The notes: a model not told the origin generated them from the letters alone. Numbered from the stretch's first letter, positions 5,859 through 63,460 are shown. The stretch: DNA of 64,000 nt from Terriglobia bacterium (GCA_020073105.1 JAIQFW010000002.1:6353-70352); one strand, 5' to 3'. A program made the numbers and translations.

Positions 5859-6575
5859 TCAGTTCACCCAGCCCGACTTTGACCCGCCGTTCTTCTTGTC
5901 AATTTCATCCGGAGGAACGTAGTTGCCGTGCTCGTCGAAGGTCACGGTGCGGTCGTGCTTGCGCATGTAGACTTCGAACTTGCGCGCGGCGCGGCGGCGC
6001 TTCCAGCGGTAGTACGAGTTGCGCAGGCTGAAGTAGCGCTCCGAGGTGCCAAACATCAGCCCTCGTTTTGGCAGGAACTTGATGTAGAGAAATCCGAAGA
6101 GCAGCCCGCCGAGGTGGGCGAAATTTGCGATCCCGCCTTGCGACGGCTGGAAGGTCGCGATGACCACCAGAAAAATCATGATGGCGACCATATATTTGGC
6201 CTTCATCATGAAGAAACTGACCAGATTGTTTCTACTTCGCCAGATTCTGTTCGCTGACAGGTAGAACTCCAGAAATTTCTTCGATCCCCAGTCGACTTCC
6301 TCCTGCGCGCCAAACATCCAGAGCATCAGCATATTGATCAGCACATGACCGACGCTGGCGTGCAAGAACGAATAAGTGATGAGCTGCCAGATCCAGCCAT
6401 GGACGACCGCCGCGGGAATGAGTGCGCCGAAGGTGATCAGGTACGATCCAGCCATTGGGGAAAACGCGCCCAGCACCACTTGCAGGAAGTAGACTGCGAC
6501 GCAGCCAATGACGATCCTCTTCACCCAGGGGGTGAAGGGAGGAAAACTCAGCGAGAGCGTTCGTCCGCGATTCAT
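5859..6575 (-). CDS. rhomboid-family membrane protein, apparently lacking the catalytic GxSG helix
   Basis: WQLITYSFLHASVGHVLINMLMLWMFG (HxxxN) and ANFAHLGGLLFG are rhomboid TM2 and TM6 signatures. No GxSG motif lies between them. Confidence 0.8.
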   Translation of the reverse strand: MNRGRTLSLSFPPFTPWVKRIVIGCVAVYFLQVVLGAFSPMAGSYLITFGALIPAAVVHGWIWQLITYSFLHASVGHVLINMLMLWMFGAQEEVDWGSKKFLEFYLSANRIWRSRNNLVSFFMMKAKYMVAIMIFLVVIATFQPSQGGIANFAHLGGLLFGFLYIKFLPKRGLMFGTSERYFSLRNSYYRWKRRRAARKFEVYMRKHDRTVTFDEHGNYVPPDEIDKKNGGSKSGWVN

Positions 6576-6851
6576 GAAGTCGTCATTCGTCGTGAGCGCG
6601 CCGAGTACGGTTAGAAGACCGCAGTTGCCGACCTAGCAATCTTATCAGTTCGCCTCGCCGCTCTGGCAGCGGCACCGCCGGCAAGCTACGGTCGCCGAAT
6701 CTGGTGGCGGGTCTTGTCGCAATTCCCGCCTTTTGTCAAGGCCCGCCCGCCCCTGCACAGAGGATCGATTTCAGCAGATAAGCACTTGACCGCAGCCGCC
6801 AGAGTCACTAAATATTATCAGGGAGCCCTAATTGGACGGAGGCACGTGAGC

Positions 6852-7052
6852 ATGGTTTATTGTCCTGAATGTGAGAGCAACCTGGACATCGATGAAGACG
6901 AAGTGGACGAAGGTGAAATCGTCACCTGCCCGGAGTGTGGCACCGATTTTGAAGTGGTGACCGTTAGCCCCCTTGCGCTAAAGGCGGTGGACGAGAATGA
7001 ATACGAGGAGGACGACGAGGAAGAGGATGCCGAAGACGGTGACTACTCCTGA
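6852..7052 (+). CDS. LysW-like zinc-ribbon protein with acidic tail
   Basis: 66 aa from the internal ATG with GGAGG upstream. CPEC...CPECG ribbon and an EYEEDDEEEDAEDGDYS tail. Confidence 0.6.
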   Translation: MVYCPECESNLDIDEDEVDEGEIVTCPECGTDFEVVTVSPLALKAVDENEYEEDDEEEDAEDGDYS

Positions 7053-7885: not shown

Positions 7886-7927
7886 TTCGCCGCGGATTCA
7901 CGCGGATAAACGCAGATCAAGAAAATT
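7886..7927 (-). repeat. ATCYGCG-type unit (left arm of an inverted pair with 8037-8078)
   Basis: GCCGCGGATTCACGCGGATAAACGCAGATCAAGAAAAT; CGCGGAT/CGCAGAT recur every 10 nt. Confidence 0.8.
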
Positions 7928-8012
7928 AAGAATATGGGCGCGAGCGCGCCCATGCGGGAGCCAATCATGTTCAATCATGTCATCTAGGCCGGAGCGAATG
8001 ATAACAAAGAGT

Positions 8013-8040
8013 AAAGGCCGCCATTTCTGGCGGCCTTTTC
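8013..8040. terminator. bidirectional terminator-like hairpin between convergent genes
   Basis: AAAGGCCGCC-ATTTCT-GGCGGCCTTT, with T/A runs on both sides. Confidence 0.5.
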
Positions 8041-8078
8041 AATCCGCGTTCATCTGCGTAAATCCGCGGCGAAAGATT
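8037..8078 (+). repeat. ATCYGCG-type unit (right arm)
   Basis: TTTCAATCCGCGTTCATCTGCGTAAATCCGCGGCGAAAGATT abuts the rpsA stop codon. Confidence 0.8.
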
Positions 8079-12297: not shown

Positions 12298-12337
12298 TTC
12301 CTCTGTGTCCTCCGCGTACTCTGCGTTGAGGGTTTTT
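12298..12337 (+). repeat. 9-nt-periodic CTCTGYG repeat unit, single arm
   Basis: TTCCTCTGTGTCCTCCGCGTACTCTGCGTTGAGGGTTTTT in the folD/coaE spacer. Confidence 0.85.
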
Positions 12338-12338
12338 C

Positions 12339-12968
12339 TTGCTAAAAGTAGGTCTCACCGGTGGAATCGCCGCTGGCAAATCCGTTGTAGGCGAGATGCT
12401 GGTCGCGCTTGGCGCTCATTTGATCCAAGCCGACGCCATCGCCCACCAACTGATGCAGCCGGGCCAGCCGGTCTACGAGGAAGTCGTGCGCCACTTCGGC
12501 GCTGGCATCCTGAATCCCGACAGTACCGTCAATCGGGCCCGCCTCGCCGAAGCCGCATTTGGCGGTCCCAATTCCCGCATTCAGGAGCTGAACAAAATCG
12601 TCCATCCCGCCGTAGTTAAGAAACAGGACGAATGGATGGAAGAGGTGGGCCGTCAGAATTCCAAGGCGATCGCCATCGTGGAAGCCGCTCTGATTCTGGA
12701 AGCCGGAGCCGCGGAGCGTTTCGACCGGCTGGTGGTCGTGACCTGCCGTCCCGAACAACGTGTTGAACGCTGGGCCGCGCGATTGAAGGTCGATCTGGAG
12801 ACGGCTCGTCGCGAGGTTGAACGGCGGATGGCTGCACAGTTCCCGGACGAAAGAAAGATCAAAGCCGCAGATTACGTCATCGACAACTCCGGCTCGCTGG
12901 ATGAGACCCGCAAGCGAGTGAGAGAAGTGTTCGAGAAGCTGAAAGCCGAAGCTGAGCGAAGCCCTTGA
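12339..12968 (+). CDS. coaE: dephospho-CoA kinase
   Basis: N-terminal LKVGLTGGIAAGKS P-loop and HPAV motif. TTG start lies inside a repeat tail. Confidence 0.9.
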   Translation: MLKVGLTGGIAAGKSVVGEMLVALGAHLIQADAIAHQLMQPGQPVYEEVVRHFGAGILNPDSTVNRARLAEAAFGGPNSRIQELNKIVHPAVVKKQDEWMEEVGRQNSKAIAIVEAALILEAGAAERFDRLVVVTCRPEQRVERWAARLKVDLETARREVERRMAAQFPDERKIKAADYVIDNSGSLDETRKRVREVFEKLKAEAERSP

Positions 12969-12991
12969 CTCCGAATTCAGTACAATTAATT

Positions 12992-13025
12992 CAGATCTGC
13001 GTAAATCTGTGGCTGAGGGTTTGAC
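12992..13025 (+). repeat. ATCYGCG-type unit, single
   Basis: CAGATCTGCGTAAATCTGTGGCTGAGGGTTTGAC, 6 nt before the htrA-like ATG. Confidence 0.75.
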
Positions 13026-13030
13026 GTTCT

Positions 13031-14173
13031 ATGAGGCTGTTACGACCCATTCTCCTGGCTCTGCTTCTGGTCGGCGCATTTTTCTATTTCACGACTTATC
13101 GTTCGGCTCGAGGCCGGCTGGCCGACTGGATCGGCCGCCCCAACAAGGTGGAAATTACCGAGGCGGCCAGTGGCACCGAAGTGCTGGACGCCGAAGAACA
13201 GAACAACATCAGCGTCTATCGCAAGAACATCGCGTCTGTGGTGAACATCACCTCGCGGGCGGTGACGTTTGATTTCTTCTACGGGCTGGTGCCCGAGGAG
13301 GGCCAAGGGTCGGGCTTTATCATTGACAAAGAGGGCCACGTCCTCACCAACTACCACGTGATCGCGGACGCGCGCCAAGTTGAGGTCACGCTCCACAACC
13401 GCAAAAAATACAAAGCGACGATTGTCGGCACCGACCGCTCGCACGATCTGGCCGTGGTGCAGATCAAAGCGCCCGACCTCCAGCCCATGACGCTAGGCGA
13501 CTCGACGAACCTGCAGGTCGGGCAGAAGGTGTATGCGATTGGCAATCCCTTTGGCCTGTCCGGCACACTGACGCGAGGGATTGTGAGTTCGATCCGTTCG
13601 GTGCAGGAACCTAACGGGCAGAGCATCGACGAAGCCATTCAGACTGATGCCGCTATCAATCCCGGAAACTCCGGCGGGCCGTTGCTCAACTGGCACGGCG
13701 AGGTCATCGGCATCAACACCATGATCGCCTCCAGCGTTGGACAGAGCGCGGGCATCGGTTTTGCCATTCCAATCAATACCGCGAAAGCTGTCCTCAATGA
13801 CTTGGTCACTCTGGGACGGGTGCGCCGCCCGGCGATGGGAGTACGGACCATTCCCGTCGATCCCGACTTGGCTGACCAATTGGGCCTGGCGGCAGATTAC
13901 GGATTGCTGATCGTGCAAGTTGTTCCTGGAGGGGCGGCCGACCGCGCAGGACTGCATGGCGGCAACGAGCGCGCCTATCTGGGCAACGTGCCCATCGCGA
14001 TTGGTGGCGACCTAATTGTTGCCATCGACGGCGAGAGAGTCGAAGACCAGCAGGACCTGGCCCGGATCATGAACAAGCACCGCGCCGGAGATGCCGTCCA
14101 CGTGACTATCTACCGCGGCAAGAAGAAACTGCAGGTCGAGGTCACGCTGGGCGAAGTGCGGGAGCAGGTTTAG
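13031..14173 (+). CDS. HtrA/DegP-family serine protease with PDZ domain
   Basis: TM anchor, then LTNYHV, DLAVV and GNSGGPL (His-Asp-Ser), followed by a C-terminal PDZ-like region. Confidence 0.9.
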   Translation: MRLLRPILLALLLVGAFFYFTTYRSARGRLADWIGRPNKVEITEAASGTEVLDAEEQNNISVYRKNIASVVNITSRAVTFDFFYGLVPEEGQGSGFIIDKEGHVLTNYHVIADARQVEVTLHNRKKYKATIVGTDRSHDLAVVQIKAPDLQPMTLGDSTNLQVGQKVYAIGNPFGLSGTLTRGIVSSIRSVQEPNGQSIDEAIQTDAAINPGNSGGPLLNWHGEVIGINTMIASSVGQSAGIGFAIPINTAKAVLNDLVTLGRVRRPAMGVRTIPVDPDLADQLGLAADYGLLIVQVVPGGAADRAGLHGGNERAYLGNVPIAIGGDLIVAIDGERVEDQQDLARIMNKHRAGDAVHVTIYRGKKKLQVEVTLGEVREQV

Positions 14174-14185
14174 GAAAAACCTCCT

Positions 14186-14321
14186 CAACGCAGAGGACGC
14201 AAAGGCCGCAGAGTAAACAAAGAAAATACTCAGTCCTCCGTGGTCCTCTGTGCCCCCCTGTGGTTCAGATTTGACTTTTACCTCTGCGTCCTCGGCGTAC
14301 TCTGCGTTGAAAGCCTTTGAC
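14186..14321. repeat. cluster of three CTCTGYG-type units (one reverse, two forward)
   Basis: CAACGCAGAGGACGCAAAGGCCGCAGAG ... CCTCCGTGGTCCTCTGTGCCCCCCTGTGGTTCAGATTTGAC ... CCTCTGCGTCCTCGGCGTACTCTGCGTTGAAAGCCTTTGAC. Confidence 0.85.
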
Positions 14322-14453
14322 TTTGGCTTGCGACCACGATAACTTGTCCTTCTGCCTATGACTGCCGTCCGCTAGTCCGTGTCTCTTGCGATCCTGCGCC
14401 GCAGTGTGCGCAATCGCTTCCCGTTTTCCACCAAAATCAGAGAGGATATTTCC

Positions 14454-15272
14454 ATGGACTTCGTGGATCAATCATTAGCTCGCCGCCTGGAATCGGCAGA
14501 GGAGATGCCGCAGGTGCACTACGCCAAGCTGTATCAGAAGCTGTGTCCTGAGATCGGTGCCGCGGTCGAGCCCATCTGTGGCGGACACATGATTTTTGCG
14601 GGAGTTGGATCGCCGATCGGGCGCACAACCGGCATGGGTTTCGACGGTTCGGCTACCGCCACCGACCTCGACCGCATGGAGGAGTTTTACCGGGCGCACA
14701 AGGCTCCTTCGCAAATTGACGTCTGCCCGCTCACCGACCCGTCGCTCCTCGAACTGCTCAAGCCCCGCCGCTACGAAATGGGCGAGTTGAACAACGTGCT
14801 GTTTCGCAAGCTGGACGGCGTGGATGCGGGCATGGCGCCTGCCGGAGCCACAATTCGCCAGGGGCAGGCCCAACGGGCCGAGGAGTTTGCCGACATCGTG
14901 GTACGCAGCTTCTTTCCTGACGGAGATGCTCCCGAGGGTTTCACCGCGATGATTTCTCCGATCTATCAGATTGACGGGGCAATCCTGTTCGTCGCAGAAA
15001 TTGACGGTAAGCCGGTGGCGTGTGGCGCCGGACTGATCATCCCGGAGCATCGAATCCTGGCGTTGTTCGGGGCCGGAACTCTGCCCGAGTTCCGGCGGCG
15101 CGGTTTGCAGACGGCGCTGCTCCGCAAGCGCATGGCGGTCGCAGCCAAGGCTGGCTGCGAGTACGCCGTGATCGTGACTCGGGGAGGAACCACTTCCCAG
15201 CACAATGCCGAACGTCTGGGCTTCCGCGTCGCCTATAGTAAAGCCACGCTGGTGAAAGAGCTAAGAGACTGA
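14454..15272 (+). CDS. GNAT-family N-acetyltransferase
   Basis: C-terminal RRRGLQTALLRKRMAVAAKAGCEYAV acetyl-CoA binding motif (R/Q-x-x-G-x-G/A). Start moved to the ATG with a GAGAGGA Shine-Dalgarno sequence. Confidence 0.75.
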   Translation: MDFVDQSLARRLESAEEMPQVHYAKLYQKLCPEIGAAVEPICGGHMIFAGVGSPIGRTTGMGFDGSATATDLDRMEEFYRAHKAPSQIDVCPLTDPSLLELLKPRRYEMGELNNVLFRKLDGVDAGMAPAGATIRQGQAQRAEEFADIVVRSFFPDGDAPEGFTAMISPIYQIDGAILFVAEIDGKPVACGAGLIIPEHRILALFGAGTLPEFRRRGLQTALLRKRMAVAAKAGCEYAVIVTRGGTTSQHNAERLGFRVAYSKATLVKELRD

Positions 15273-15280
15273 TTTTTTTT

Positions 15281-15365
15281 ACCGCAGAGGCCGCCGAGAC
15301 CGCCGAGAAATCATAGATCTCAGAATTTCTCTGCGTACTCAGCGTCCTCTGCGTTTCAAGATTTT
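15281..15365. repeat. inverted pair of CTCTGYG-type units (imperfect ~30-bp hairpin)
   Basis: CGCAGAGGCCGCCGAGACCGCCGAGAAAT ... ATTTCTCTGCGTACTCAGCGTCCTCTGCG + TTTCAAGATTTT. Confidence 0.88.
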
Positions 15366-15387
15366 AGGTTCAGATACATGGGACACT

Positions 15388-15762
15388 ATGACCGTTGATG
15401 ACATTCGCGAATTCTGCCTTTCCTTCCCGCAGGCCACTGAAAACCTGCAGTGGGGAGACGACCTCTGCTTCAAAGTAGCGAAGAAGATATTTGCCATCGT
15501 GAGCCTGGAATCGGTTCCTCCCAAGCTTTGCTTCAAGTGCACGCCGGAGAAGTTCGCCGAGCTGTGCGAACTGGAAGGCATCGTCCCCGCGCCCTATGTC
15601 GGCCGCTACAAGTGGGTTCTGGTGGAGCGGCTGGATGTTCTCAAAGATGACGAACTGCAAGACCTCATCCGGCAGTCGTACGAGATGGTAGCTGCGAAGA
15701 GCAAACCCAAAAGCGTGAAACGCAGAGGACGCCGAGTGCGCAGAGTGAAGAAGAAAAAGTAA
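15388..15762 (+). CDS. MmcQ/YjbR-family protein
   Basis: IREFCLSFPQATENLQWG.DLCFKVAKKIFA and PAPYVGRYKWV motifs. The Lys/Arg tail is encoded by a repeat arm. Confidence 0.75.
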   Translation: MTVDDIREFCLSFPQATENLQWGDDLCFKVAKKIFAIVSLESVPPKLCFKCTPEKFAELCELEGIVPAPYVGRYKWVLVERLDVLKDDELQDLIRQSYEMVAAKSKPKSVKRRGRRVRRVKKKK

Positions 15763-15831
15763 ATCCGCTATTGAGGGTTTCTCCGCGCCTTCTGCGGCTC
15801 TTCTCAGCGGTCTCTGCGTTAAGTGTTTGAC
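15719..15831. repeat. inverted pair of CTCTGYG-type units; left arm is coding
   Basis: AACGCAGAGGACGCCGAGTGCGCAGAG ... CTCCGCGCCTTCTGCGGCTCTTCTCAGCGGTCTCTGCGTTAAGTGTTTGAC. Confidence 0.85.
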
Positions 15832-15969
15832 CCTAATTTGACTCCCCCTCATCCCCTAAGCTAGCCTCAAGAGTCTGCCCAGGGCCTGCTTCCCGAGCCT
15901 GATCGCGGACGGATCAAGCTGCACCCGGCGTGACGGGCCAGACAGCCCGTTTCCCCAGTCCACGATTCC

Positions 15970-17727
15970 ATGCGATTCAACCGCAAGCCACTGATTCTGC
16001 TGCTTCTGGCGGCCCTGGTAGCCGCTGTCGCGCCGCTGCAGGGCTCGGTTCTTCCAGCCCATGCCCCCCATGCCATGGTGGCCAGTGTTCATGGGCTGGC
16101 TTCGCAGGCAGGTGTCGAGATCATGAAGGCGGGAGGTAACGCGGTGGACGCCGCAGTGGCCATCGGCTTCGCGCTCGCCGTCGTTCATCCTCAAGCGGGC
16201 AACCTCGGCGGCGGCGGATTCATGCTCATCCGCATGGCCGACGGCAAGACCCACTTCATCGACTACCGCGAGAAAGCTCCCGCGGCCGCCACCGCCAATA
16301 TGTACCTGGACGCCCAGGGCAACGTAATCGAGAATGCCAGCGTTGTCGGGTATCGTGCCATCGCTGTCCCCGGGTCGGTTGCGGGCATGGTTTACGTCGA
16401 GAAGAAGTACGGCAAGCTGACCCTCGACCGCGTAATGGCCCCGGCCATCAACTTGGCCCGCGGCTTCCCGCTGGCCTGGGAAGACGCCCGGGATCTCCAG
16501 CAGGACGAGGATCTCGCCAGGTTCCCCGAATCGCGCCGCATCTTTCAGCGAGGTGGGAATTACTACAAGCAGGGAGGGATTTTCCGCCAGCCAGACTTGG
16601 CGCGAACTCTGGAGCGCATTGCCGCCAATCCGGACGAGTTCTACCACGGGGCCATGGCACGTGAACTGGCGGCTTCCATTCAGAAAGGCGGCGGTCTCAT
16701 CACCCAGGACGATCTTGCACGCTACGAAGTGAAGGAACGCGAGCCCGTCCGCGGCACCTATCGCGGGTACGAGATTATCAGCGCTCCTCCACCGTCCTCG
16801 GGTGGAACCGCGCTGCTTGAGATACTCAACATCCTGGAAGGGTACGATCTGGCGAAAGCTGGCAATCGGTCATCCGAATCAGTCCACCTCACGGTCGAGG
16901 CATTCCGTCGCGCCTTCTACGATCGGGCCGAATTTATGGGTGATCCCGATTTTTCCAAACTTCCAGTTGCCCAACTCATTGACAAGAAATATGGCGTAGC
17001 CTGGAGGGAATCACTCGACCCGGCGCACGCCAGTGTCAGCAAAGACCTGAAGCGTCCTGCGATCTTCAACGAGCTGGAACAGTATGCTTCTCAGCATGCG
17101 CAACCCATGGCGGTGCCGGAACCGGAGCACACCACGCACTACTCGGTGGTGGACGCCGCCGGCAATGCGGTTGCCGTCACCACCACGCTGAACGACGATT
17201 TCGGTTCGCGCGTGACCGCCGAAGGGCTTGGCTTCCTCTTGAACGACGAGATGGACGATTTCTCCGCCAAGCCGGGCGTCCCTAATCTCTATGGCTTGAT
17301 TCAGGGCCCGGCGAACGCCATCGGTCCCGGCAAACGGCCCCTGTCGGCGATGACCCCAACGATTGTCCTGAAAGACGATAAGCTATTCCTGGTGCTCGGT
17401 TCGCCGGGCGGGTCAAAAATCATCACGACGGTCGCGAATATCCTGATGGGCGTAGTGGATTTCGGCATGAACATTCAGGAAGCTGTGGAAGCGCCACGTT
17501 TCCATCACCAGTGGCTGCCGGATAAGGTGAATGTGGAACAATGGTTCTCGCCGGACACCGTGAAGGCGCTCGAGGCCAAGGGACACCACGTCGAACGGGG
17601 AGTCACCGTGGGAGCAGAGTGGGAGCCCTACTGGAGCGACGGCGAGTGTGTCGCGATTGACCAGAAGACCGGCGAGCGCCTGGGCGCCAGCGACGGCAGA
17701 CACAACGGAAAGGCGATTGGCTACTAA
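15970..17727 (+). CDS. ggt: gamma-glutamyltransferase
   Basis: Signal peptide. MVAS.H.LASQAGVEIMKAGGNAVDAAVA. Autoprocessing site EHTTHYSVVD. GSPGGSKIIT. Confidence 0.93.
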   Translation: MRFNRKPLILLLLAALVAAVAPLQGSVLPAHAPHAMVASVHGLASQAGVEIMKAGGNAVDAAVAIGFALAVVHPQAGNLGGGGFMLIRMADGKTHFIDYREKAPAAATANMYLDAQGNVIENASVVGYRAIAVPGSVAGMVYVEKKYGKLTLDRVMAPAINLARGFPLAWEDARDLQQDEDLARFPESRRIFQRGGNYYKQGGIFRQPDLARTLERIAANPDEFYHGAMARELAASIQKGGGLITQDDLARYEVKEREPVRGTYRGYEIISAPPPSSGGTALLEILNILEGYDLAKAGNRSSESVHLTVEAFRRAFYDRAEFMGDPDFSKLPVAQLIDKKYGVAWRESLDPAHASVSKDLKRPAIFNELEQYASQHAQPMAVPEPEHTTHYSVVDAAGNAVAVTTTLNDDFGSRVTAEGLGFLLNDEMDDFSAKPGVPNLYGLIQGPANAIGPGKRPLSAMTPTIVLKDDKLFLVLGSPGGSKIITTVANILMGVVDFGMNIQEAVEAPRFHHQWLPDKVNVEQWFSPDTVKALEAKGHHVERGVTVGAEWEPYWSDGECVAIDQKTGERLGASDGRHNGKAIGY

Positions 17728-18548
17728 TGCTGAAAGCAATTTCTACTTATGTTTATGTGAAGGAACGGCTGCATCCCGGGCTGCTGGACGGCTTGGTGAA
17801 GGGTGGCGCTCAGGCGATTGAGATCTTTGCCGCGCGCCAGCATCTGGACTATGCCAACCGCAAGCAGCACGTTCGGGAAATTGCCGACTGGTTCCGCGCC
17901 AGCGGCGTCCCCCTGCATTCCGTGCATGCGCCGCTCTATGCCGATTATGAGTGGGGACGCGCGGGAGCGCCGCCGGTCAACATCACCTCCACCGACCGGG
18001 CCACCCGAATCGAAGCTATGGACGAGATCAAGCGCGCCCTGGAGATCGCCGAGCAGATTCCATTCCGCTTCCTGGTGCAGCACATGGGAGTGGGCGGAGA
18101 ATCGTTCGATGACAACAAATTCGAGGCTGCGATGACCTCCATCGAGCATCTGCGAGCATTCGCCCGGCCGCTGGGAGTGCGCATTCTGCTGGAGAACATT
18201 CCCAACGAGATCTGCACTCCGGAAAGACTCGTGGAGTTCATTCACACCTCGCACTTCGACGACGTCGGAGTGTGCTTCGACTTTGGCCACGCCCACATCA
18301 TGAGCGACGTGCCCCAGGCCTTCGAGACCGTGAAGAAGTACGTCCAGTCGACACATGTCCACGACAACGCCAAGGACCGCGATTCGCACCTCTGGCCGGG
18401 CGATGGGTCGATCGACTGGAAGCAGGCCATGGAATTGCTGCGTTCGGCGCCGCACACCCCGCCATTGCTGCTGGAGATTGAGGAGAACGAGAAGATCAAT
18501 CCGGCAGAGAAGATGGGAGCAGTGTTCGAGAAGCTGGAGAGATCATAA
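17727..18548 (+). CDS. sugar phosphate isomerase/epimerase (xylose isomerase-like TIM barrel)
   Basis: LHSVHAP, LLENIPNE, FDFGHAH and HVHDN metal-ligand pattern. TAATG overlap with ggt. Confidence 0.8.
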   Translation: MLKAISTYVYVKERLHPGLLDGLVKGGAQAIEIFAARQHLDYANRKQHVREIADWFRASGVPLHSVHAPLYADYEWGRAGAPPVNITSTDRATRIEAMDEIKRALEIAEQIPFRFLVQHMGVGGESFDDNKFEAAMTSIEHLRAFARPLGVRILLENIPNEICTPERLVEFIHTSHFDDVGVCFDFGHAHIMSDVPQAFETVKKYVQSTHVHDNAKDRDSHLWPGDGSIDWKQAMELLRSAPHTPPLLLEIEENEKINPAEKMGAVFEKLERS

Positions 18549-18596
18549 CCGCCGAGCCCTCTGTGCACTCTGTGTCCTCTGTGTTGAAGATTTTTT
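18549..18596 (+). repeat. CTCTGYG-type unit, single arm
   Basis: CCGCCGAGCCCTCTGTGCACTCTGTGTCCTCTGTGTTGAAGATTTTTT. Confidence 0.85.
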
Positions 18597-18615
18597 CGGA
18601 TGAGAAAGTTTTCAT

Positions 18616-19941
18616 ATGTCATCACCGGTAACCACCATCGCCGACATCGGCAAGCACGAAGGCCAGGCTGTCACCATTCGCGGCTGGCTCTATAACCTGC
18701 GCGAAAGCGGCAAGCTGCTGTTCCCGCAATTCCGCGACGGCTCCGGGGTCATTCAGGGAGTCATTGCCAAGAACGCCGTTCCGCCGGAGGTGTTCGACTC
18801 GGTCAAGGGCCTGACCCAGGAGTCCAGCGTCATCGTTGAAGGCAAGGTCCGCGCCGACAAGCGCGCCCCGGGAGGCTATGAGCTGGACGTCTCAGGCGTG
18901 CAGGTGGTTCAACGCGTATCCGAGGCCGATCCCTATCCGATTTCCCTGAAAGAACACGGCGTCGATTTCCTGATGGAGCACCGCCATCTCTGGGTGCGCT
19001 CGCCGCGTCAGGCGGCCATCCTCCGTGTGCGGGCGGAGATCATCAAGGCAGCGCGCGATTTCTTCGACGAGCGTGGCTTCACTCTGACTGATCCGCCGAT
19101 TCTCACTCCCGCGGCGTGCGAAGGTACCACCACACTCTTCCCGGTGGATTACTTTGAAGAGCAGGCTTTTCTCACCCAGTCCGGGCAGCTTTACATCGAA
19201 GCTACCGCGATGGCGTTGGGCAAGGTCTATTCCTTCGGGCCCACATTCCGTGCAGAAAAATCCAAGACCCGCCGCCACTTGACCGAGTTCTGGATGGTCG
19301 AGCCGGAAGTCGCCTACGCCCAGCTCGAAGACATTATGGAACTGGCCGAGGGACTCATCAGTTTCCTGGTGAAGCGTTGTCTGGAGCGCCACCGCCCTGA
19401 TCTGCAGACCATCGGCCGCGATGTCTCAAAACTTGAAAAAGTCGAAGCTCCATTCCCTCGCATCACTTACGACGAAGCGGTCAAAATGCTGCAGGAAGCC
19501 CACGCAAAAGGCGCCTTGGAAGACAACTTCGAATATGGCGGCGACCTAGGGTCTCCCGACGAAACCTACATCTCATCGCAGTTCGACCGGCCGGTGATGG
19601 TGCACCGCTATCCCGCAAAAGTAAAAGCGTTTTACATGGAGCCGGATCCCCAAAACCCTGACTTGGCATTGTGCGTGGACGTGCTCGCGCCCGAAGGCTA
19701 CGGCGAGATCATCGGCGGCTCGCAGCGTATGGCATCGTATGATCTGCTGCTAAAACGCATTCACGAACACGGGCTGCCGGAAGAGGCGTTCAAGTGGTAT
19801 CTCGACTTGCGGAAATACGGCAGCGTGCCGCACGCGGGTTTTGGTATGGGCATTGAACGCGCAGTAGCGTGGATCTGCGGCTTGGAGCATGTGCGGGAAA
19901 CGATTCCGTTCCCCAGGATGCTGCACCGGCTTTATCCGTGA
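18616..19941 (+). CDS. asnS: asparagine--tRNA ligase
   Basis: Class IIb synthetase motifs: [25 protein letters not shown], and [27 protein letters not shown]. Confidence 0.9.
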
Positions 19942-19946
19942 AACCC

Positions 19947-20044
19947 AAACCACAGAGGACACGGAGGACCCAGAGGATTGACCATGAAAAACCAGATGGA
20001 TTGCTCAACTCTGTGTCCTCTGTGACCTCCGTGGTGCAAGATTT
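19947..20044. repeat. inverted pair of CTCTGYG-type units
   Basis: AAACCACAGAGGACACGGAGGACCCAGAGG ... CAACTCTGTGTCCTCTGTGACCTCCGTGGTGCAAGATTT. Confidence 0.88.
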
Positions 20045-20052
20045 ATGAAGCT

Positions 20053-21000
20053 ATGACAACCACTCCTCCAACTTATCCCAACATTACTCCCCGCAAGATT
20101 CGGGTCATCGGCGTCCCCCTCGACCTTGGCCAGTCGCGCCGCGGTGTTGACATGGGGCCTTCGGCGGTGCGCGTTGCCGGTCTCGAAGCGCGTCTGGAAG
20201 CCCTCGGCCACATCGTCGAAGATGGCGGCAACGTGGCCGTCGCCATCCCGGAACAAAAGAAGGAAGGCCATCCCAACGCGAAGTACCTCAAAGAAATCAC
20301 TGCGACCTGCACCAAGCATGCCGACCTGGTACTGAAGACGCTGGAAGCGGGCAAAGTGCCGGTGTCTCTCGGCGGGGACCACTCGATGGCAGTGGGCAGC
20401 GTGGCGGGCGTGGCTGAGTTCTACCGTCGCCAGGGTCAGAAGATCGGCCTGATCTGGATCGACGCCCACACCGACATCAACACGCCCGAGAGCTCGCCCA
20501 GCGGACACGTCCACGGCATGCCGCTGGCAGCGATCATGGGGCTCGGCCCGGTGGAACTCTCCAACATCTACAACTTTTCCCCCAAGATCAAGCCCGAAAA
20601 TTGCGTGCTGGTCGGGGTGCGTGACATCGACGCCATCGAACGAGAAAACGTTCACCGAGCCGGGATCGAAGTTTTGACCATGCGCGATATCGACGAGCGC
20701 GGCATGCGCACGGTCATGGAAGAGGCCTTGCGGATGGCTGGCCGCGGTACCGCCGGCTACCACGTTTCCCTCGATATGGACTGGATCGATCCCGAAGACG
20801 CGCCTGGAGTCGGGACACCCGTGCGGGGCGGCGCCACCTACCGCGAGGCCCACCTTGCCATGGAAATCATCGCGGACCACGGCCGCATGCTGAGCTTCGA
20901 AATCGTGGAAGTTAACCCTGTCATCGACGAGCACAACCAGACGGCGGATCTGGCGGTGGAAATGGCGCTGTCGGCGTTCGGGAAGACGACGAACCAGTAG
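20053..21000 (+). CDS. rocF: arginase
   Basis: Mn-binding motifs GGDHSMA, IDAHTDINT and SLDMDWIDP, plus GGATYRE. Confidence 0.9.
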   Translation: MTTTPPTYPNITPRKIRVIGVPLDLGQSRRGVDMGPSAVRVAGLEARLEALGHIVEDGGNVAVAIPEQKKEGHPNAKYLKEITATCTKHADLVLKTLEAGKVPVSLGGDHSMAVGSVAGVAEFYRRQGQKIGLIWIDAHTDINTPESSPSGHVHGMPLAAIMGLGPVELSNIYNFSPKIKPENCVLVGVRDIDAIERENVHRAGIEVLTMRDIDERGMRTVMEEALRMAGRGTAGYHVSLDMDWIDPEDAPGVGTPVRGGATYREAHLAMEIIADHGRMLSFEIVEVNPVIDEHNQTADLAVEMALSAFGKTTNQ

Positions 21001-24499: not shown

Positions 24500-24624
24500 T
24501 TTCTCAGCGGACTCTGCGGGTGTTCTCCGCGATCTCAGCGATTTAGGACTTTGCTTTCGGGGAGTCTCCTTAAGTCCTTGAGACGCAGAAATCCCCGAAC
24601 AGCCACAGAGCACGCTGAGAAATC
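24500..24624. repeat. inverted pair of CTCTGYG-type units, tails facing inward
   Basis: TTTCTCAGCGGACTCTGCGGGTGTTCTCCGCGATCTCAGCGATTTAGGAC ... AGACGCAGAAATCCCCGAACAGCCACAGAGCACGCTGAGAAATC. Confidence 0.8.
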
Positions 24625-26970: not shown

Positions 26971-27053
26971 TTTCTTCCTCTGTGAACTCTGTGTCCTCTG
27001 TGGTGAAAACCAAAAAATCCTAACCACAGAGGGCACAGAGGACACAGAGGTTT
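26971..27053. repeat. inverted pair of CTCTGYG-type units
   Basis: TTTCTTCCTCTGTGAACTCTGTGTCCTCTGTGGTGAAAACC ... TAACCACAGAGGGCACAGAGGACACAGAGGTTT. Lies between the ddl stop and the SAM riboswitch. Confidence 0.88.
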
Positions 27054-33852: not shown

Positions 33853-34961
33853 ACCGAATAATGGCGATTGTCGAGCGCGAGATGCGCAAGTTTTTCCGTT
33901 CTCCGGCGCTGATGATGGCGTCCATGATCTTCCCTCTGGTGCAGCTCATCGTGCTGGGCAACGCCTTTGGCGGCAAGATTCGCGATGCCAAGCTCGGCTT
34001 GGTGGACCAGGACGGCGGTACCCAGGCGCTGAAGATTCGCGAGGCATTCGACTCGGTCCGCGCCAACATGCGCACCTTCGAACCGGTTTACTACCACGAC
34101 CCGAAGACCGCCATGGAGGACGTGCGCAACGGCAAGATCCAGGGTGCCGTCATCATTCCGCCCCAGTTTTCGCGCCGCGTATACGAGCAGGACCAGCCAC
34201 GCATCGCCCTGGTCGTGGACAACAGCGACAACTTCATGAGTTCCACGTTGGAAGCGTCGCTGACTGAAATTACCAAGGCCCTGAACCAACCCGCGGTCAC
34301 GCCTCGCATGATGCAGGAAACCGTCCTGCAGATCGTCGAGCTCTATCCCTATATCGAATACATGAAATATCTGCTTCCCGGTTCTATCACCCTGGCGATG
34401 TTTGTCTCGGTCATGATCGGCGGTGGCATGTTGTACATCGACGACAAAGCCCGCGGCGTACATGAGGGCTACCTGGTCACGCCCATCACCAAGACCGAGC
34501 TGGTCTTCGGGCTCAACGGCGCGGGAGCGATCAAGGCGGTGCTGACCGGGGTTGTGATCACGCTGGTGGGGTCGTTGCTGGCGGGCGTGAGTACGGTGTT
34601 CAATCCCGCCACGATCCTGGGCTTGATGATCATGATCCTGCTGACCTCGCTAGCCTTCAACACCATGATGTTCCTGATGATGGTGCGCATCGAAGACCCC
34701 TTGGTGCCGCGGGCCATCTTCGGGATTCTCAACACGCTGCTGTTTTTCCCCAGTGGCTCGATCTATCCGGTGCAGGCGTTCCCGTGGTGGCTGCGCGCCA
34801 TCGCCAAAGCCGATCCCTTCACTTATGCGGTGCATGGCTTGAAATCGCTTCTGCTGAAAGAAACCGGCCTGGCCGCCATCGTTCCCGACATGATTTACCT
34901 GTCGATATTCGCGGTGGTCACGCTGGCCATCGCGACTCCCCTGTTTAAGCGGACACTGTAA
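33849..34961 (+). CDS. ABC-2-type transporter permease
   Basis: 370 aa. N-terminal TM, large extracytoplasmic loop, five C-terminal TMs. 4-nt overlap with the ATPase gene. Confidence 0.88.
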   Translation: MNRIMAIVEREMRKFFRSPALMMASMIFPLVQLIVLGNAFGGKIRDAKLGLVDQDGGTQALKIREAFDSVRANMRTFEPVYYHDPKTAMEDVRNGKIQGAVIIPPQFSRRVYEQDQPRIALVVDNSDNFMSSTLEASLTEITKALNQPAVTPRMMQETVLQIVELYPYIEYMKYLLPGSITLAMFVSVMIGGGMLYIDDKARGVHEGYLVTPITKTELVFGLNGAGAIKAVLTGVVITLVGSLLAGVSTVFNPATILGLMIMILLTSLAFNTMMFLMMVRIEDPLVPRAIFGILNTLLFFPSGSIYPVQAFPWWLRAIAKADPFTYAVHGLKSLLLKETGLAAIVPDMIYLSIFAVVTLAIATPLFKRTL

Positions 34962-34966
34962 ATCTT

Positions 34967-35095
34967 CACCGCCGAGCACGCCGAGAGCGCCGAGAAATTC
35001 TTCCTTGCGCCAATCTTGGCAAACTCTGGGCTTAAGGGCTTTTGCTGCATTTCGTTTTCTCTGCGTCCTTTGCGCCCTCTGCGTTTCAAGATTTT
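34967..35095. repeat. inverted pair of CTCTGYG-type units with a long loop
   Basis: CACCGCCGAGCACGCCGAGAGCGCCGAGAAATTC ... TTTTCTCTGCGTCCTTTGCGCCCTCTGCGTTTCAAGATTTT. Confidence 0.85.
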
Positions 35096-39880: not shown

Positions 39881-39946
39881 TTGTCATTCCGAGCTGTTCC
39901 GTAGCCGCATGCATGCGGCGAGGACGTGTCGAGGAATCTGCTTTTT
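39881..39946 (+). repeat. TCATYCCGAGC...TCGAGGRATCTGC palindromic element
   Basis: TTGTCATTCCGAGCTGTTCCGTAGCCGCATGCATGCGGCGAGGACGTGTCGAGGAATCTGCTTTTT in the plsX/fabD spacer. Confidence 0.85.
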
Positions 39947-39950
39947 GATT

Positions 39951-41228: not shown

Positions 41229-41290
41229 TTCTCATTCCGTGCTGTTCGTAGCCGCGCTTGCGCGACCAGAACACGCGAGGAATTTGCACT
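41229..41290 (+). repeat. TCATYCCGWGC...GAGGAATYTGC element
   Basis: TTCTCATTCCGTGCTGTTCGTAGCCGCGCTTGCGCGACCAGAACACGCGAGGAATTTGC in the yceD/rpmF spacer. Confidence 0.8.
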
Positions 41291-47828: not shown

Positions 47829-47905
47829 CAGTAATCGCCGGGGAAGCCGGACACTACACGAGGAGTTTTCTGGACAGGTATGTGACTAGGAGCAAGCAGC
47901 TAGCG

Positions 47906-47936
47906 GCCTGAAGCCTGAAGCCTGAAGCCTGAAGCC
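47906..47936. repeat. tandem octamer GCCTGAAG x ~4
   Basis: GCCTGAAGCCTGAAGCCTGAAGCCTGAAGCC, 5 nt from the stop of the minus-strand TPR gene. Confidence 0.9.
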
Positions 47937-47941
47937 TTCCC

Positions 47942-52431: not shown

Positions 52432-53058
52432 GCGCGGGCGTCCCCGCCCGTGCGAGGCTTGTTCATTTCCGAACGCGGTTTCTCGTTTGCGGACACGCAC
52501 TCCACTTCGGCGCTCGCGTTCCCGTTTAAAATCAATTCATCTTCAATTCATCTCCTCTTCACCTTCTGGCTGCGTGCGTGCAATAACATCGGTGCTACGC
52601 GCACATGTGAAAACTTGTCAAAAGTTGTAACGGTTTGTGTGCGCTGCATAGACAAGACAGGCCAAGCCTGTGCCCTGCACTTCCGGGCGCACAACTCGCT
52701 AACGACGAGGGCAGGAAATCGTCCAACCGGGTGATTGAGAAAAGAAGCCCAGAGGAACTTTTGAGCATCTAGGAGCGTATCAGGAAAGTATTGCGCGAAA
52801 GCCGGGCGACCAACCAGCCAGCCCGGCTTTCGTAAGTTTCAGGGGTTGAGGGACTGGCTCACACTCGGTTTGGCGGCCCAGGTGAGCGCAATCCCTGTAG
52901 CAGAGAGCCCGCGGCCTTGCGGCCACACGCTTTCTCCTTAACCCCGCGGCAGCATTGTAGGCTTTTGGCAAAGAAACGCAAGTTTTTTTGCGAAGGCGAG
53001 TTCAAGCCGCCCCGAACCGGTTCCCGACGCTTTTCGGGAAAGAAAAAAGGAGCATCGC

Positions 53059-53530: not shown

Positions 53531-53585
53531 ATTCCTCAGCGTACTCTGCGGCTGTTCTCAGCGGTCTCGGCGTTTCAAGGTCTTT
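53531..53585 (+). repeat. CTCTGYG-type unit, single arm
   Basis: ATTCCTCAGCGTACTCTGCGGCTGTTCTCAGCGGTCTCGGCGTTTCAAGGTCTTT. Confidence 0.8.
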
Positions 53586-54377: not shown

Positions 54378-54508
54378 TCCGTCCTCCAACGCTAAAGGTT
54401 AAGGGGATTGCAGATTCTTACACTGGTAGGATGCGACGGGATAGTTACGGTTGTCCCTGTACGAGAAGGCAAGGCTAAGGTGTCCGCGTGTGGCTGAACC
54501 TGGTTTCC

Positions 54509-54542
54509 GGAGACCTGAGACCTGAATCCTGAGACCTGACCC
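54509..54542. repeat. tandem CCTGAGAC-like repeats
   Basis: GGAGACCTGAGACCTGAATCCTGAGACCTGACCC abuts the stop of the minus-strand E1 gene. Confidence 0.8.
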
Positions 54543-56823: not shown

Positions 56824-56902
56824 CCCACCACAGAGCCACAGAGGCACAGAGAACAAGAGAATTGGAATCCTCTGTGTACTCTGTGCCCTCTGTGGTAAAG
56901 AC
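56824..56902. repeat. inverted pair of CTCTGYG-type units filling the cysteine synthase / JAMM spacer
   Basis: CCCACCACAGAGCCACAGAGGCACAGAGAAC ... ATCCTCTGTGTACTCTGTGCCCTCTGTGGTAAAGAC. Confidence 0.88.
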
Positions 56903-57874
56903 TTACCCTTCCTCCCAGAATCTCTCGCTCAGATACTTGTCCCCGGAATCCGGCAGGATGGTCACAAACACGCCAGTTTCGTTCTTCTTGAGCTGCCGCG
57001 CCAGCTGCACACACCCAGCGACGGCGGCCGCCGCGGAAACGCCCACCAGCAGTCCCTCTTCGCGCGCCAAACGCTTGGCCATCGCATAAGCGTCCTCGGT
57101 GGCAATGCCCACGTCAGCATCCGCCAGCGACGTGTCGTAGATTTTCGGCACGATCGCCGTAGCCATGTGCTTGGCGCCTTCGATGCCGTGAAACGGAGAA
57201 TCTGGCTGCAGCGAGATGCAGCGCACGCGAGGGTTCAATTCTTTCAAGCGCCGCGCCGTGCCCACGAACGTGCCGCTGGTTCCCAACATGGAAACGAAGT
57301 GGGTGATACGTCCTTCCGTCTGTTGCCAGATTTCGTTGGCTGTGCCATGGTAGTGAGCCAGCCAGTTGGCGTCGTTGGAATACTGGTCGGCGTAGAAGTA
57401 GAGTTCAGGATGCTTGGCGGCGAGTTCGCGGGCCAGGCGGATCGCGCCATCGGAGCCCTCGTCCGGATCGGTATAAAGGATATTCGCGCCGTAGGCGTGC
57501 AGAATACGTTTGCGCTCGATGGAAACATTCTCCGGCATGCACAGCGTAACCGGAAAATTCAGCGCGGCGCCGATCATGGCGTAGGCAATGCCGGTGTTTC
57601 CGCTGGTGGAGTCGAGCAGAATTTTACCGGATGTTAACTTGCCACTGGCGCGAGCTTGAGCGACGATGTTGGCCGCGGCCCGGTCCTTGACCGAGCCTCC
57701 GGGATTGAACCACTCGGCTTTGCCGAGAATCTCGGCGGCGGGCAACTCCTGGGCAATGCGCCCCAGTCGCAGCAACGGGGTGTTGCCAATCCGGTCCAGA
57801 CTCCGCTCACCTAGACTGGCTTGATGTGCTGGAGGAATAGACACTTGCACCGATTTTCGCGAGGTGCCTGACAT
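56903..57874 (-). CDS. cysteine synthase-family PLP enzyme (CysM/CysK-like)
   Basis: IGNTPLLRL, NPGGSVKDRAA (PLP lysine), and SGNTGIAYA. Confidence 0.9.
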   Translation of the reverse strand: MSGTSRKSVQVSIPPAHQASLGERSLDRIGNTPLLRLGRIAQELPAAEILGKAEWFNPGGSVKDRAAANIVAQARASGKLTSGKILLDSTSGNTGIAYAMIGAALNFPVTLCMPENVSIERKRILHAYGANILYTDPDEGSDGAIRLARELAAKHPELYFYADQYSNDANWLAHYHGTANEIWQQTEGRITHFVSMLGTSGTFVGTARRLKELNPRVRCISLQPDSPFHGIEGAKHMATAIVPKIYDTSLADADVGIATEDAYAMAKRLAREEGLLVGVSAAAAVAGCVQLARQLKKNETGVFVTILPDSGDKYLSERFWEEG

Positions 57875-60209: not shown

Positions 60210-60285
60210 CGCCGTCGTTGGTCGTAGGTCCTTGGTTGTTGGCTTAAACAAGACCGTCGTTGGTCATTCGTCCTTCGTCGTTAGC
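60210..60285. repeat. CGTCGTTGGTCG-type repeats (left half of a composite palindrome)
   Basis: GCCGTCGTTGGTCGTAGGTCCTTGGTTGTTGG...GACCGTCGTTGGTCATTCGTCCTTCGTCGTTAGC starts 1 nt after the stop of the DUF3592-like gene. Confidence 0.8.
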
Positions 60286-60294
60286 TTGAACAAA

Positions 60295-60330
60295 GCAGAT
60301 TCCTCGTCGCTGCGCTCCCCGGAATGACCA
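60295..60330 (-). repeat. same element, short reverse copy
   Basis: GCAGATTCCTCGTCGCTGCGCTCCCCGGAATGACCA. Confidence 0.75.
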
Positions 60331-60346
60331 ATTGAAATAAGAGTGG

Positions 60347-60399
60347 GCCAAGGACCAACGACGAACGGCCGACGACGAACGGCCAACGACCTACGACGG
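60347..60399. repeat. CCAACGACGAACGG-type repeats (right half, inverse orientation)
   Basis: GCCAAGGACCAACGACGAACGGCCGACGACGAACGGCCAACGACCTACGACGG ends 4 nt before the M23 peptidase stop. Confidence 0.8.
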
Positions 60400-60403
60400 T
60401 TTT

Positions 60404-62680: not shown

Positions 62681-62712
62681 ACAACGACCAAGGACGAACG
62701 ACCAACGACCGT
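62681..62712. repeat. CCAACGACGAACG-type repeat copy
   Basis: ACAACGACCAAGGACGAACGACCAACGACCGT immediately after the thiL stop. Confidence 0.8.
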
Positions 62713-63361: not shown

Positions 63362-63442
63362 TGGAGGACGGGTGTCCTCGCGTCCGGCTTACTTCCACTT
63401 CTCTTTTCTTCAGCAATGGAGGACGGGCGTCCCCGCCCGTCC
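63362..63442. repeat. two copies of the TGGAGGACGGGCGTCCCCGCCCGTCC hairpin element
   Basis: A degenerate copy at 63362-63385 and a clean copy at 63417-63442. The related core CGGGCGTCCCCGCCCG at 52435-52450 follows the quinone oxidoreductase stop. Confidence 0.8.
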
Positions 63443-63460
63443 CGAGTCTTCGTCCTATGG

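Follow-up and report, generated by a model that had tools for sequence, protein, structure and literature searches.

Phased heptad arrays in the gene spacers of a Terriglobia bacterium as probable orphan arms of GxxExxY nuclease cassettes

Small nuclease genes framed by short repeats have been described for Ssn, a group of GIY-YIG nucleases lying between SRM/NTS hairpin repeats that are cut as single-stranded DNA and exist in hundreds of scattered copies; 42% of the Ssn homologues are flanked on both sides by repeats (Chenal et al. 2025, Nat Commun, PMC11893778). Ssn/SRM is the nearest published system to the one considered here, a family of short tandem arrays in a 64-kb stretch of DNA (64,000 nucleotides, hereafter the window) from a Terriglobia bacterium (GCA_020073105.1, JAIQFW010000002.1:6353-70352). 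Each unit is made of three heptads separated by two free bases and closed by a GTKAAA-like tail, (CTCNGYG-NN)x3 + GTKAAA; this forward orientation is called F and its reverse complement R. The comparison with related genomes gives good support for considering the window units as orphan arms of cassettes that carry, between an R and an F array, a gene for a GxxExxY protein.

The gene order folD-coaE-htrA-(GNAT)-mmcQ-ggt-TIM-asnS-rocF is widely kept among 80 metagenomic relatives, which were fetched by means of the window gamma-glutamyltransferase (59-82% identity); compared loci are designated below by L numbers. In the asnS/rocF spacer, L130, L154 and L202 have an intact gene of 144-148 amino acids between R and F arrays, with the arms TTTCAC-(CGCCGAG-NN)x3 upstream and (CTCGGCG-NN)x3-GTGAAA downstream. 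A pseudogene is found between such arms in L143 and in L191, the intact gene copy of the latter being located in the TIM-barrel/asnS spacer instead. The same asnS/rocF spacer contains an R array, 26 codons and an F array in the close relative L121, an R array alone in L161 and nothing in L133, and in the window it contains a gene-less R-F cassette with 27 nucleotides between the units (19948-19979 and 20007-20044). A possible gene remnant inside this window pair (ATGAAAAACCAGAT compared with ATGGAAGAAAAAGAC..GACCAGATC in L121) was too short to count. At folD/coaE, L121 and L122 carry the full R-F pair and the window just the F arm, and therefore the unit at 12298..12336 is the surviving arm. 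On the basis of the asnS/rocF series and the folD/coaE comparison, gene-less pairs and solo arms are products of cassette decay. The window thus carries decay products only: gene-less R-F pairs, solo arms (12298, 18557), an arm absorbed into a gene at 15710 and eroded copies.

The product of the gene between the arms matches PF13366 (PDDEXK_3, E=1e-41) and TIGR04256 ('GxxExxY protein', E=7e-44), and the PD-(D/E)XK motif D...ExK is kept in 16/16 sequences read. A full cassette measures ~0.45-0.6 kb and is formed by TTTCAC + CRCNGAG x3, a gene of ~125-145 amino acids, and CTCNGYG x3 + GTKAAA; the window units match the arms of GxxExxY genes in L130, L154, L191, L202, L086, L059, L201 and L206. 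The association was also studied in a sample of six GxxExxY genes, five of them (L201, L203, L204, L205, L206) picked by protein alone and the sixth (L202) taken from a close homologue whose tail had been seen beforehand. A phased-heptad array lies directly 3' of the gene in all six, and an inverted array lies 5' in four of the five with usable upstream sequence. Moreover, in-frame translation of the F array gives SAxSAxSA, and 100 of the 120 close homologues read (at least 76% identity) have this C-terminal sequence. The family comprises 23,086 clusters at 50% identity (E<=1e-3), which makes it very large, and the type of heptad follows the protein: those at least 57% identical to the L130 copy have CTCNGYG-type heptads, those 51-55% identical have CTCTGTG, CTTAGTG or CTTCATG, and those 44-45% identical have CAGTG- or ATCCGCG-type units, the last being the 10-nt family present at 7886-8078 of the window. 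A sequence search of the PDB gave no solved relative of the GxxExxY protein. Many representatives of 263-295 amino acids (P0121-P0126, P0128-P0130 and others) contain two tandem GxxExxY domains; they may be genuine fusions, or else two neighbouring cassettes with readthrough across the arrays at their junction.

The units of the window were located with the strict pattern CTCYGYGNNCTCNGYGNNCTCYGYG, allowing up to 2 mismatches and taking the expectation from shuffles of the 64 kb, and with a profile built from the clear copies. The strict pattern gave 15 matches against 0.02 expected, and the profile search gave 23 units, 15 of them strong (14 at E<1e-4 and one period-8 arm picked up by a periodicity scan) and eight weaker or eroded. 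The run from folD to rocF holds 12 of the 23; an outward walk along the contig encountered no further units in 13 kb of adjoining sequence. Intergenic DNA makes up 15.1% of the window and receives 22 of the 23 units (binomial P=1.6e-17), the sole unit within a coding sequence being 15710-15747(-), which forms the C-terminal tail of the mmcQ open reading frame. After the third heptad the tail reads, for example, GTTGAAGATTT, GGTGAAAA or GGTAAAAA. The 2-nt spacers vary freely among the window copies and the heptads hold. The elements are as follows.

12298..12336, plus strand: solo F unit, CTCTGTG-TC-CTCCGCG-TA-CTCTGCG + tail TTGAGGGTTTT (profile E=9e-9, strict pattern); it takes up the folD/coaE spacer of 42 nt, with its tail adjoining the TTG start of coaE.
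14179..14216, minus strand: R unit that begins 6 nt past the htrA stop (profile E=1.4e-8); it pairs with 14279-14317 (-53 kcal/mol, z -5.3).
14236..14272, plus strand: degenerate TG-type F unit of period 10 with 1 mismatch (profile E=0.39), nested between the arms of the 14179/14279 pair.
14279..14317, plus strand: F unit upstream of the GNAT gene (profile E=2.7e-10); its tail is followed by a promoter-like hexamer, TTGACT.
15273..15310, minus strand: R unit of CTCGGCG type directly past the GNAT stop (profile E=4e-9); it forms a hairpin with 15326-15364 (-35.6 kcal/mol, z -5.5).
15326..15364, plus strand: F unit, the mmcQ start being 35 nt downstream (profile E=2.5e-10).
15710..15747, minus strand: R unit whose in-frame translation gives the basic tail KRRGRRVRRV at the end of the mmcQ product (profile E=1.4e-8); the R arm supplies the mmcQ C-terminus at 15710-15762.
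15781..15824, plus strand: decayed F unit, CTCCGCG ... CTCAGCG-GT-CTCTGCG-TTAAGT (profile E=0.015), immediately preceding the conserved promoter of ggt, TTGACTC-N18-GCTAGCCT.
18550..18594, plus strand: located in the TIM-barrel/asnS spacer, one R-type heptad, CGCCGAG, and after it an F unit whose tail is TTGAAGATTTT (profile E=5e-10, strict pattern); this solo unit, with its F arm at 18557, gives no fold (z -0.6).
19948..19979, minus strand: R unit of TG type that begins 6 nt past the asnS stop (profile E=6e-5); its partner in the hairpin is 20007-20044 (-44 kcal/mol, z -6.5).
20007..20044, plus strand: F unit ending at the rocF start region (profile search).
24502..24620, no strand given: decayed copies, with two blocks that together comprise four F heptads at 24502-24551, and a further two R heptads at 24604-24620 (profile E 0.09-0.28).
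26975..27052, no strand given: tails-inward F-R pair upstream of the promoter of an S-adenosylmethionine (SAM) riboswitch (fold -54.7 kcal/mol, z -9.7).
34959..35094, no strand given: gene-less R-F pair with 57 nt between the units (profile search).
53533..53580, plus strand: F array of four heptads interrupted by 5-6 nt (profile E 0.015-0.03).
56827..56905, no strand given: R-F pair, with period 8 in its R arm, flanked by two minus-strand genes of a sulfur-carrier cluster (fold -42.8 kcal/mol, z -5.7).
7886..8078, no strand given: R-F pair of the sister family with a 10-nt period and ACGCGGAT units (periodicity).

Five of these elements are R-F pairs with their tails outward (14179-14317, 15273-15364, 19948-20044, 34959-35094, 56827-56905). 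The ACGCGGAT-unit array of 7886-8078 also flanks a GxxExxY gene in a Thermoflexales genome (L072). As side observations, the coaE start sits inside the F tail of the 12298 unit, and promoter-like hexamers adjoin the arrays at 14306 and 27049.

An initial annotation of the window had described 9-nt-periodic CTCTGYG units with a tail in six of the seven non-zero spacers between folD and rocF, and the counts given above agree with that description, the six spacers being those in which it placed them. The additional copies it mentioned do exist near 24500, 26975, 34960, 53533 and 56827. The 10-nt-periodic variant that it assigned to the seventh spacer, coaE/htrA, could not be confirmed: two weak units alone are found there, and they are located in a stretch that is conserved in the same spacer of the relatives (AATTA-TACAAT ... 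GGATCGG..GAAGGTTT), so that it is more likely to be an htrA leader or promoter than a repeat element. We also observed upstream of htrA an AT-rich motif, AATTAATTACAAT / TGTTTAGAATT, followed by GGATCGG..GAAGGTTT, at 12969-13030 of the window and in L121-L123, L136, L138 and L144. The 9-nt register, which had been called strict, is dominant without being strict, since periods 8 and 10 occur as well (14236-14262, 56827-56852; relatives L121, L201, L206). A codon effect as the origin of the 9-nt period was considered and rejected: it holds for one acidobacterial clade, in which the F array is in frame, but sister families, and the CTCNGYG arrays themselves, also show periods of 7, 8, 10 and 11, so that it cannot serve as the general explanation.

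Folding of the inverted pairs gives the imperfect hairpins that had been predicted, in the form of interrupted stems of -35 to -55 kcal/mol (z -5.3 to -9.7), with the exception of one pair, whose segment 34962-35098 folds no better than shuffles (z -0.6). Single units are not palindromic and solo units do not fold (z -0.6 and -1.3). Rfam covariance models gave no match at the repeats even at E<=10, the SAM riboswitch alone reaching threshold. The arms of 28 strict R-F pairs from different genomes were compared by permutation with arms of different pairs. The variable N positions of the heptads co-vary between arms (p<=0.0006), the Y positions agree in 74/84 cases against 42 expected (p<=0.0006), and the first three tail bases agree in 73/84 against 53 expected (p<=0.0006), whereas the NN spacers of the 28 pairs have no arm-to-arm co-variation (33/112 against 35 expected, p=0.71). 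If the hairpin were under selection, its spacers would stay paired, and arms copied recently would have identical spacers; neither is seen. Recognition of the phased heptads themselves is the simplest interpretation, the kept feature being these heptads and not a continuous hairpin.

The arrays are by no means restricted to Acidobacteriota. In an exact-pattern scan with one genome per species, the heptads plus tail were matched, among the matches listed, in at least 120 species of more than 12 phyla, the taxa including Acidobacteriota, Planctomycetota, Verrucomicrobiota, Chloroflexota and Desulfobacterota, as well as Beta- and Gammaproteobacteria, Cyanobacteria, Bacteroidota and Cloacimonadota. 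Matches in Streptomyces, Streptosporangiaceae and Ruminococcus (L057, L084, L090, L116) were not counted, as they look like long simple tandem runs without the tail. The tail consensus over 152 array ends is G(82%) T(75%) K(78%) A(64%) A(65%) A(47%), and many matches form inverted pairs separated by 10-200 nt. The window and the 200 fetched loci together give 123 pairs of neighbouring arrays, distributed as R-F 81, F-R 18, F-F 19 and R-R 5. The R-F gaps are mostly of 8-200 nt, and the eight gaps of 298-707 nt contain a GxxExxY gene or its remains in six cases, an unrelated 206-amino-acid open reading frame in one and an open reading frame without assignment in the other.

At identical spacers, the relatives may have palindromes of other tandem units (AATTGAGTA, GGTCAGAG, GTTTCAAG, CATTGAxT and others) or nothing, and an element of one unit type can be nested in the loop of another type (L022, L058, L060, L106). 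In the window and 8 relatives, the ggt promoter (TTGACTC-N17/18-GCTAGCCT) is preceded by an F array at a distance of 8-15 nt; L121 and L122 have another periodic unit at this spot. It was also observed that the ggt upstream element (15837-15866 in the window) is strongly conserved in 20 relatives, MmcQ being just 48-78% identical, and that a repeat array often abuts this promoter-like element. A further observation concerns the TIM-barrel/asnS spacer of L137 (~6500-6880), where a AATTGAGTA-type palindrome holds a loop insert of ~300 nt with several GNRA-like (CGAAAG) hairpins and the appearance of a structured RNA.

Taking all this together, we think that the best overall explanation, with a probability of about 0.72, is that the units are cassette arms whose phased heptads are under selection and are probably read in trans by the cassette nuclease. 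A mechanism in which the nuclease reads the phased heptads is plausible by analogy. The heptads would probably be recognition sites for the cassette-encoded enzyme, as in Ssn/SRM and RAYT/REP (REP, repetitive extragenic palindrome; RAYT, REP-associated tyrosine transposase); a cut or nick would be followed by copying from another copy, and this copying would spread, convert or replace arms at spacers already occupied. The pairs within operons are probably transcribed with their neighbours and would fold into interrupted RNA hairpins, which may affect processing or stability without being intrinsic terminators; such a role of the arrays in RNA stability or processing is conjecture.

Several observations weigh against this explanation. 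No movement was seen, filled and empty sites having no target-site duplications, and near-identical strains in four metagenomes had no presence/absence differences; the metagenome contigs of the four runs break at the repeats, and the joints are other repeat copies and not alleles of the locus. Neither the window nor 13 kb of adjoining contig contains a GxxExxY gene, and the asnS/rocF gene looks long resident, as it is found across relatives with AsnS 86-92% identical. With a spacing of 9 bp, heptads that follow one another lie on different sides of the B-DNA helix, an awkward arrangement for a simple reading of the duplex. Four-helix-bundle genes (PF05635), whose products are not nucleases, also have phased arrays of other units at their flanks, and hence the arrays are not tied to one enzyme. 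Finally, the co-divergence of heptad and protein described above fits a reader and its site, and it is equally expected from common descent of gene and arms.

Other explanations have to be considered for the same data. The initial annotation had proposed a REP-like family, of the kind also called BIME (bacterial interspersed mosaic element), and in its classical form (REPIN) this would be mobilised by a single-copy RAYT, a Y1/HUH enzyme, encoded elsewhere in the genome. That part of the proposal which concerns appearance stands, because the units are short, intergenic, dense and arranged as solos or as inverted doublets, which fold well. However, single units are neither palindromic nor folding, neither end of the unit has the GTAG/CGTC tag of the two REP superfamilies (PMC3733652), and copies vary freely at the NN spacers, unlike REP copies. 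Besides, REPs are lineage-specific and the motif occurs in more than 12 phyla, a spread not expected of a lineage-specific REP. The arms in relatives bracket at identical spacers the PD-(D/E)XK gene and not a RAYT; no RAYT is found among the Pfam-annotated genes of L207-L210. We consider this origin very improbable. The inverted-repeat transposon relatives known as MITEs (miniature inverted-repeat transposable elements), that is, terminal inverted repeats of a conventional insertion sequence mobilised by a DDE transposase, would explain tails-out inverted arms around a short variable core and the many gene-less copies per full copy. Nevertheless, no target-site duplication is present at any inspected junction, the genes between the arms encode GxxExxY (125-145 amino acids), the unrelated 206-amino-acid frame and the unassigned one, with no transposase among them, and the arms are arrays of a 7-nt motif with free spacers instead of a continuous terminal repeat, all of which makes this scarcely credible.

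The position of the hairpins right after stop codons is what could be expected of intrinsic (Rho-independent) or bidirectional terminators between genes, and a terminator role had been suggested initially. It finds no support, as the stems lack U-tracts, the scan for terminator-like sites remains at background (11 against 10.4 expected) and its sole scoring site at the repeats is the tail of one R arm, on the opposite strand. On the coding strand, none of the R-F stems has a terminator-like site at its 3' base, and solo units cannot form a stem; the absence of classical terminators, which had been noted for most of these spacers, applies to them in general. One metatranscriptome fragment runs through 19934-20070, thus the whole asnS/rocF element, although this is very weak evidence: four contigs touch the 8.3-kb run, which is too sparse for mapping of 3' ends. 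Terminators are therefore highly implausible in our opinion. A proposal that we consider less improbable, though still unlikely, is that the arrays are regulatory or architectural sites of the host, with heptads serving as targets of a conserved protein of the host, for example a factor of the nucleoid, of transcription or of RNA binding, or acting as stabilisers or processing sites of RNA, and GxxExxY genes merely settling inside them. The conserved heptads with free spacers, the F array before the ggt promoter in 8 relatives and the window, the promoter-like hexamers at 14306 and 27049, the strong folding of the pairs as RNA, the RNA fragment across the asnS/rocF element and the presence of arrays around a second, unrelated family of small genes can all be put in its favour. 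On the other hand, one and the same spacer has quite different units in different relatives (AATTGAGTA, GGTCAGAG, GTTTCAAG, others) or none, which is a poor fit to a fixed host site; in addition, copies decay, their distance to starts, stops or promoters follows no consistent rule, and in one GxxExxY clade the array is part of the open reading frame. Among the roles that had been suggested initially, a protein that reads a phased register is the one that fits best, because the heptads are conserved and co-vary between arms while the spacers are free.

A bolder version of the cassette-arm explanation can be formulated, which we regard as tentative and, in its full extent, rather unlikely. GxxExxY proteins would be sequence-reading nucleases, each clade recognising a particular code of phased heptads, with three sites in each arm, free spacers of 2 nt and a GTKAAA end, and together with their arms they would constitute an undescribed cross-phylum class of nuclease plus repeat, parallel to Ssn/SRM and RAYT/REP, that persists at fixed operon spacers with conversion or replacement, PF05635 proteins and their arrays being a second branch. 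Turnover of the spacers by conversion or replacement would explain the differing unit types at orthologous acidobacterial spacers. No description of the array family as GxxExxY arms was found in the literature, the GxxExxY papers being judged by title and abstract, and a literature search with the repeat sequence strings matched primers alone.

Other repeats were observed along the way. Four-helix-bundle genes of Terriglobales (PF05635, the fold of Avd in diversity-generating retroelements) lie between inverted phased ATCGGGTGA-type arrays at L202 17371-17724 and L211-L216 401-772, and array-flanked PF05635 genes occupy conserved sites, efp/acylphosphatase and iPGM/histidine kinase. Further short-period arrays of the window are located at 60210-60403, 62681-62712, 47902-47940 and 54505-54533; further array units are GTCGTTGG/CCAACGAC (period 7, inverted pair), GCCTGAA x4 and GAGACCT x3, with the same architecture as the palindromes of the relatives. 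G+C hairpins of GGACGGGCGTCCCCGCCCGTCC type recur in spacers (52432-52460 and 63362-63460 in the window), and similar ones are present in the relatives L126, L127, L130, L146 and L175. A second repeat family, at 39881-39950 and 41229-41290, has the ends GTCATTCCGAGC ... GTCGAGGAATCTGC around a variable G+C stem, and by eye these ends match the Ssn NTS/SRM motif (CGTCATTCC...GGAATC) (PMC11893778).

If the explanation by cassette arms is true, a very large protein family without known function would gain a partner that can be tested, namely a short motif array located beside the gene and scattered over operon spacers in many bacteria of soil and water. The specificity of GxxExxY proteins would then be assayable with oligonucleotides that vary in heptad, spacing and strandedness, and could yield programmable site-specific nucleases, as Ssn did. 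For annotation, it would account for a common class of intergenic repeats, for spurious extensions of open reading frames (SAxSAxSAV tails, AExAE leaders, the basic tail of mmcQ) and for breaks in metagenome assembly. Taken alone, the elements of the window are decayed passengers in a conserved run of housekeeping genes.

The comparison with systems already described helps in placing the family. Like MITEs and the Rickettsia palindromic elements, the window elements are short palindromic insertions, and the latter elements too can be absorbed in frame into open reading frames, as happens here with the mmcQ tail at 15710-15762; they differ in that neither target-site duplications nor a transposase relative were found here. 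The short tandemly repeated repetitive (STRR) heptamers of cyanobacteria, reportedly described by Mazel and co-workers in 1990, are said to be contiguous heptamers and to have served for fingerprinting. They resemble our arrays in being tandem 7-nt units, intergenic and in both orientations, and the pattern scan did match Nostoc and Microcoleus; we know of no description that links STRR to a gene or to inverted arms. Intervening sequences of 23S rRNA, such as those of Leptospira, carry a four-helix-bundle open reading frame (PF05635, '23S_rRNA_IVP') and are excised from the rRNA by RNase III. They are alike in that a long inverted repeat, transcribed together with the host RNA, has a small open reading frame in its loop, and unlike in that the elements considered here lie in mRNA spacers.

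REP/RAYT (PMC3733652, PMC6006769) is similar in its intergenic position, in its inverted doublets and singlets, in a single associated enzyme gene flanked by repeats and in the large majority of gene-less copies. The REP unit, however, forms an imperfect palindrome by itself, 20-40 bp long and tagged with GTAG or CGTC, is lineage-specific and is served by a Y1/HUH enzyme, whereas the window units are non-palindromic tandem heptads common to many phyla and associated with another enzyme fold. With Ssn/SRM the likeness goes further, since both have a small single-domain nuclease gene framed by short repeats, gene-less copies at other genes and a distribution over many phyla. The enzymes are nonetheless different, Ssn being GIY-YIG and GxxExxY having the PD-(D/E)XK fold, with the reading of its repeats by GxxExxY being putative. 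The repeats are different as well, SRM being one compact hairpin (GTCATTCC...GGAATC) and the window arrays being phased heptads with free spacers; the SRM motif does not occur in the heptad arrays, and the gene associated with them is not GIY-YIG cd10448. Thus, the GxxExxY array family differs from both Ssn/SRM and REP/RAYT in the fold of the enzyme and in the phased-heptad design of the repeat.

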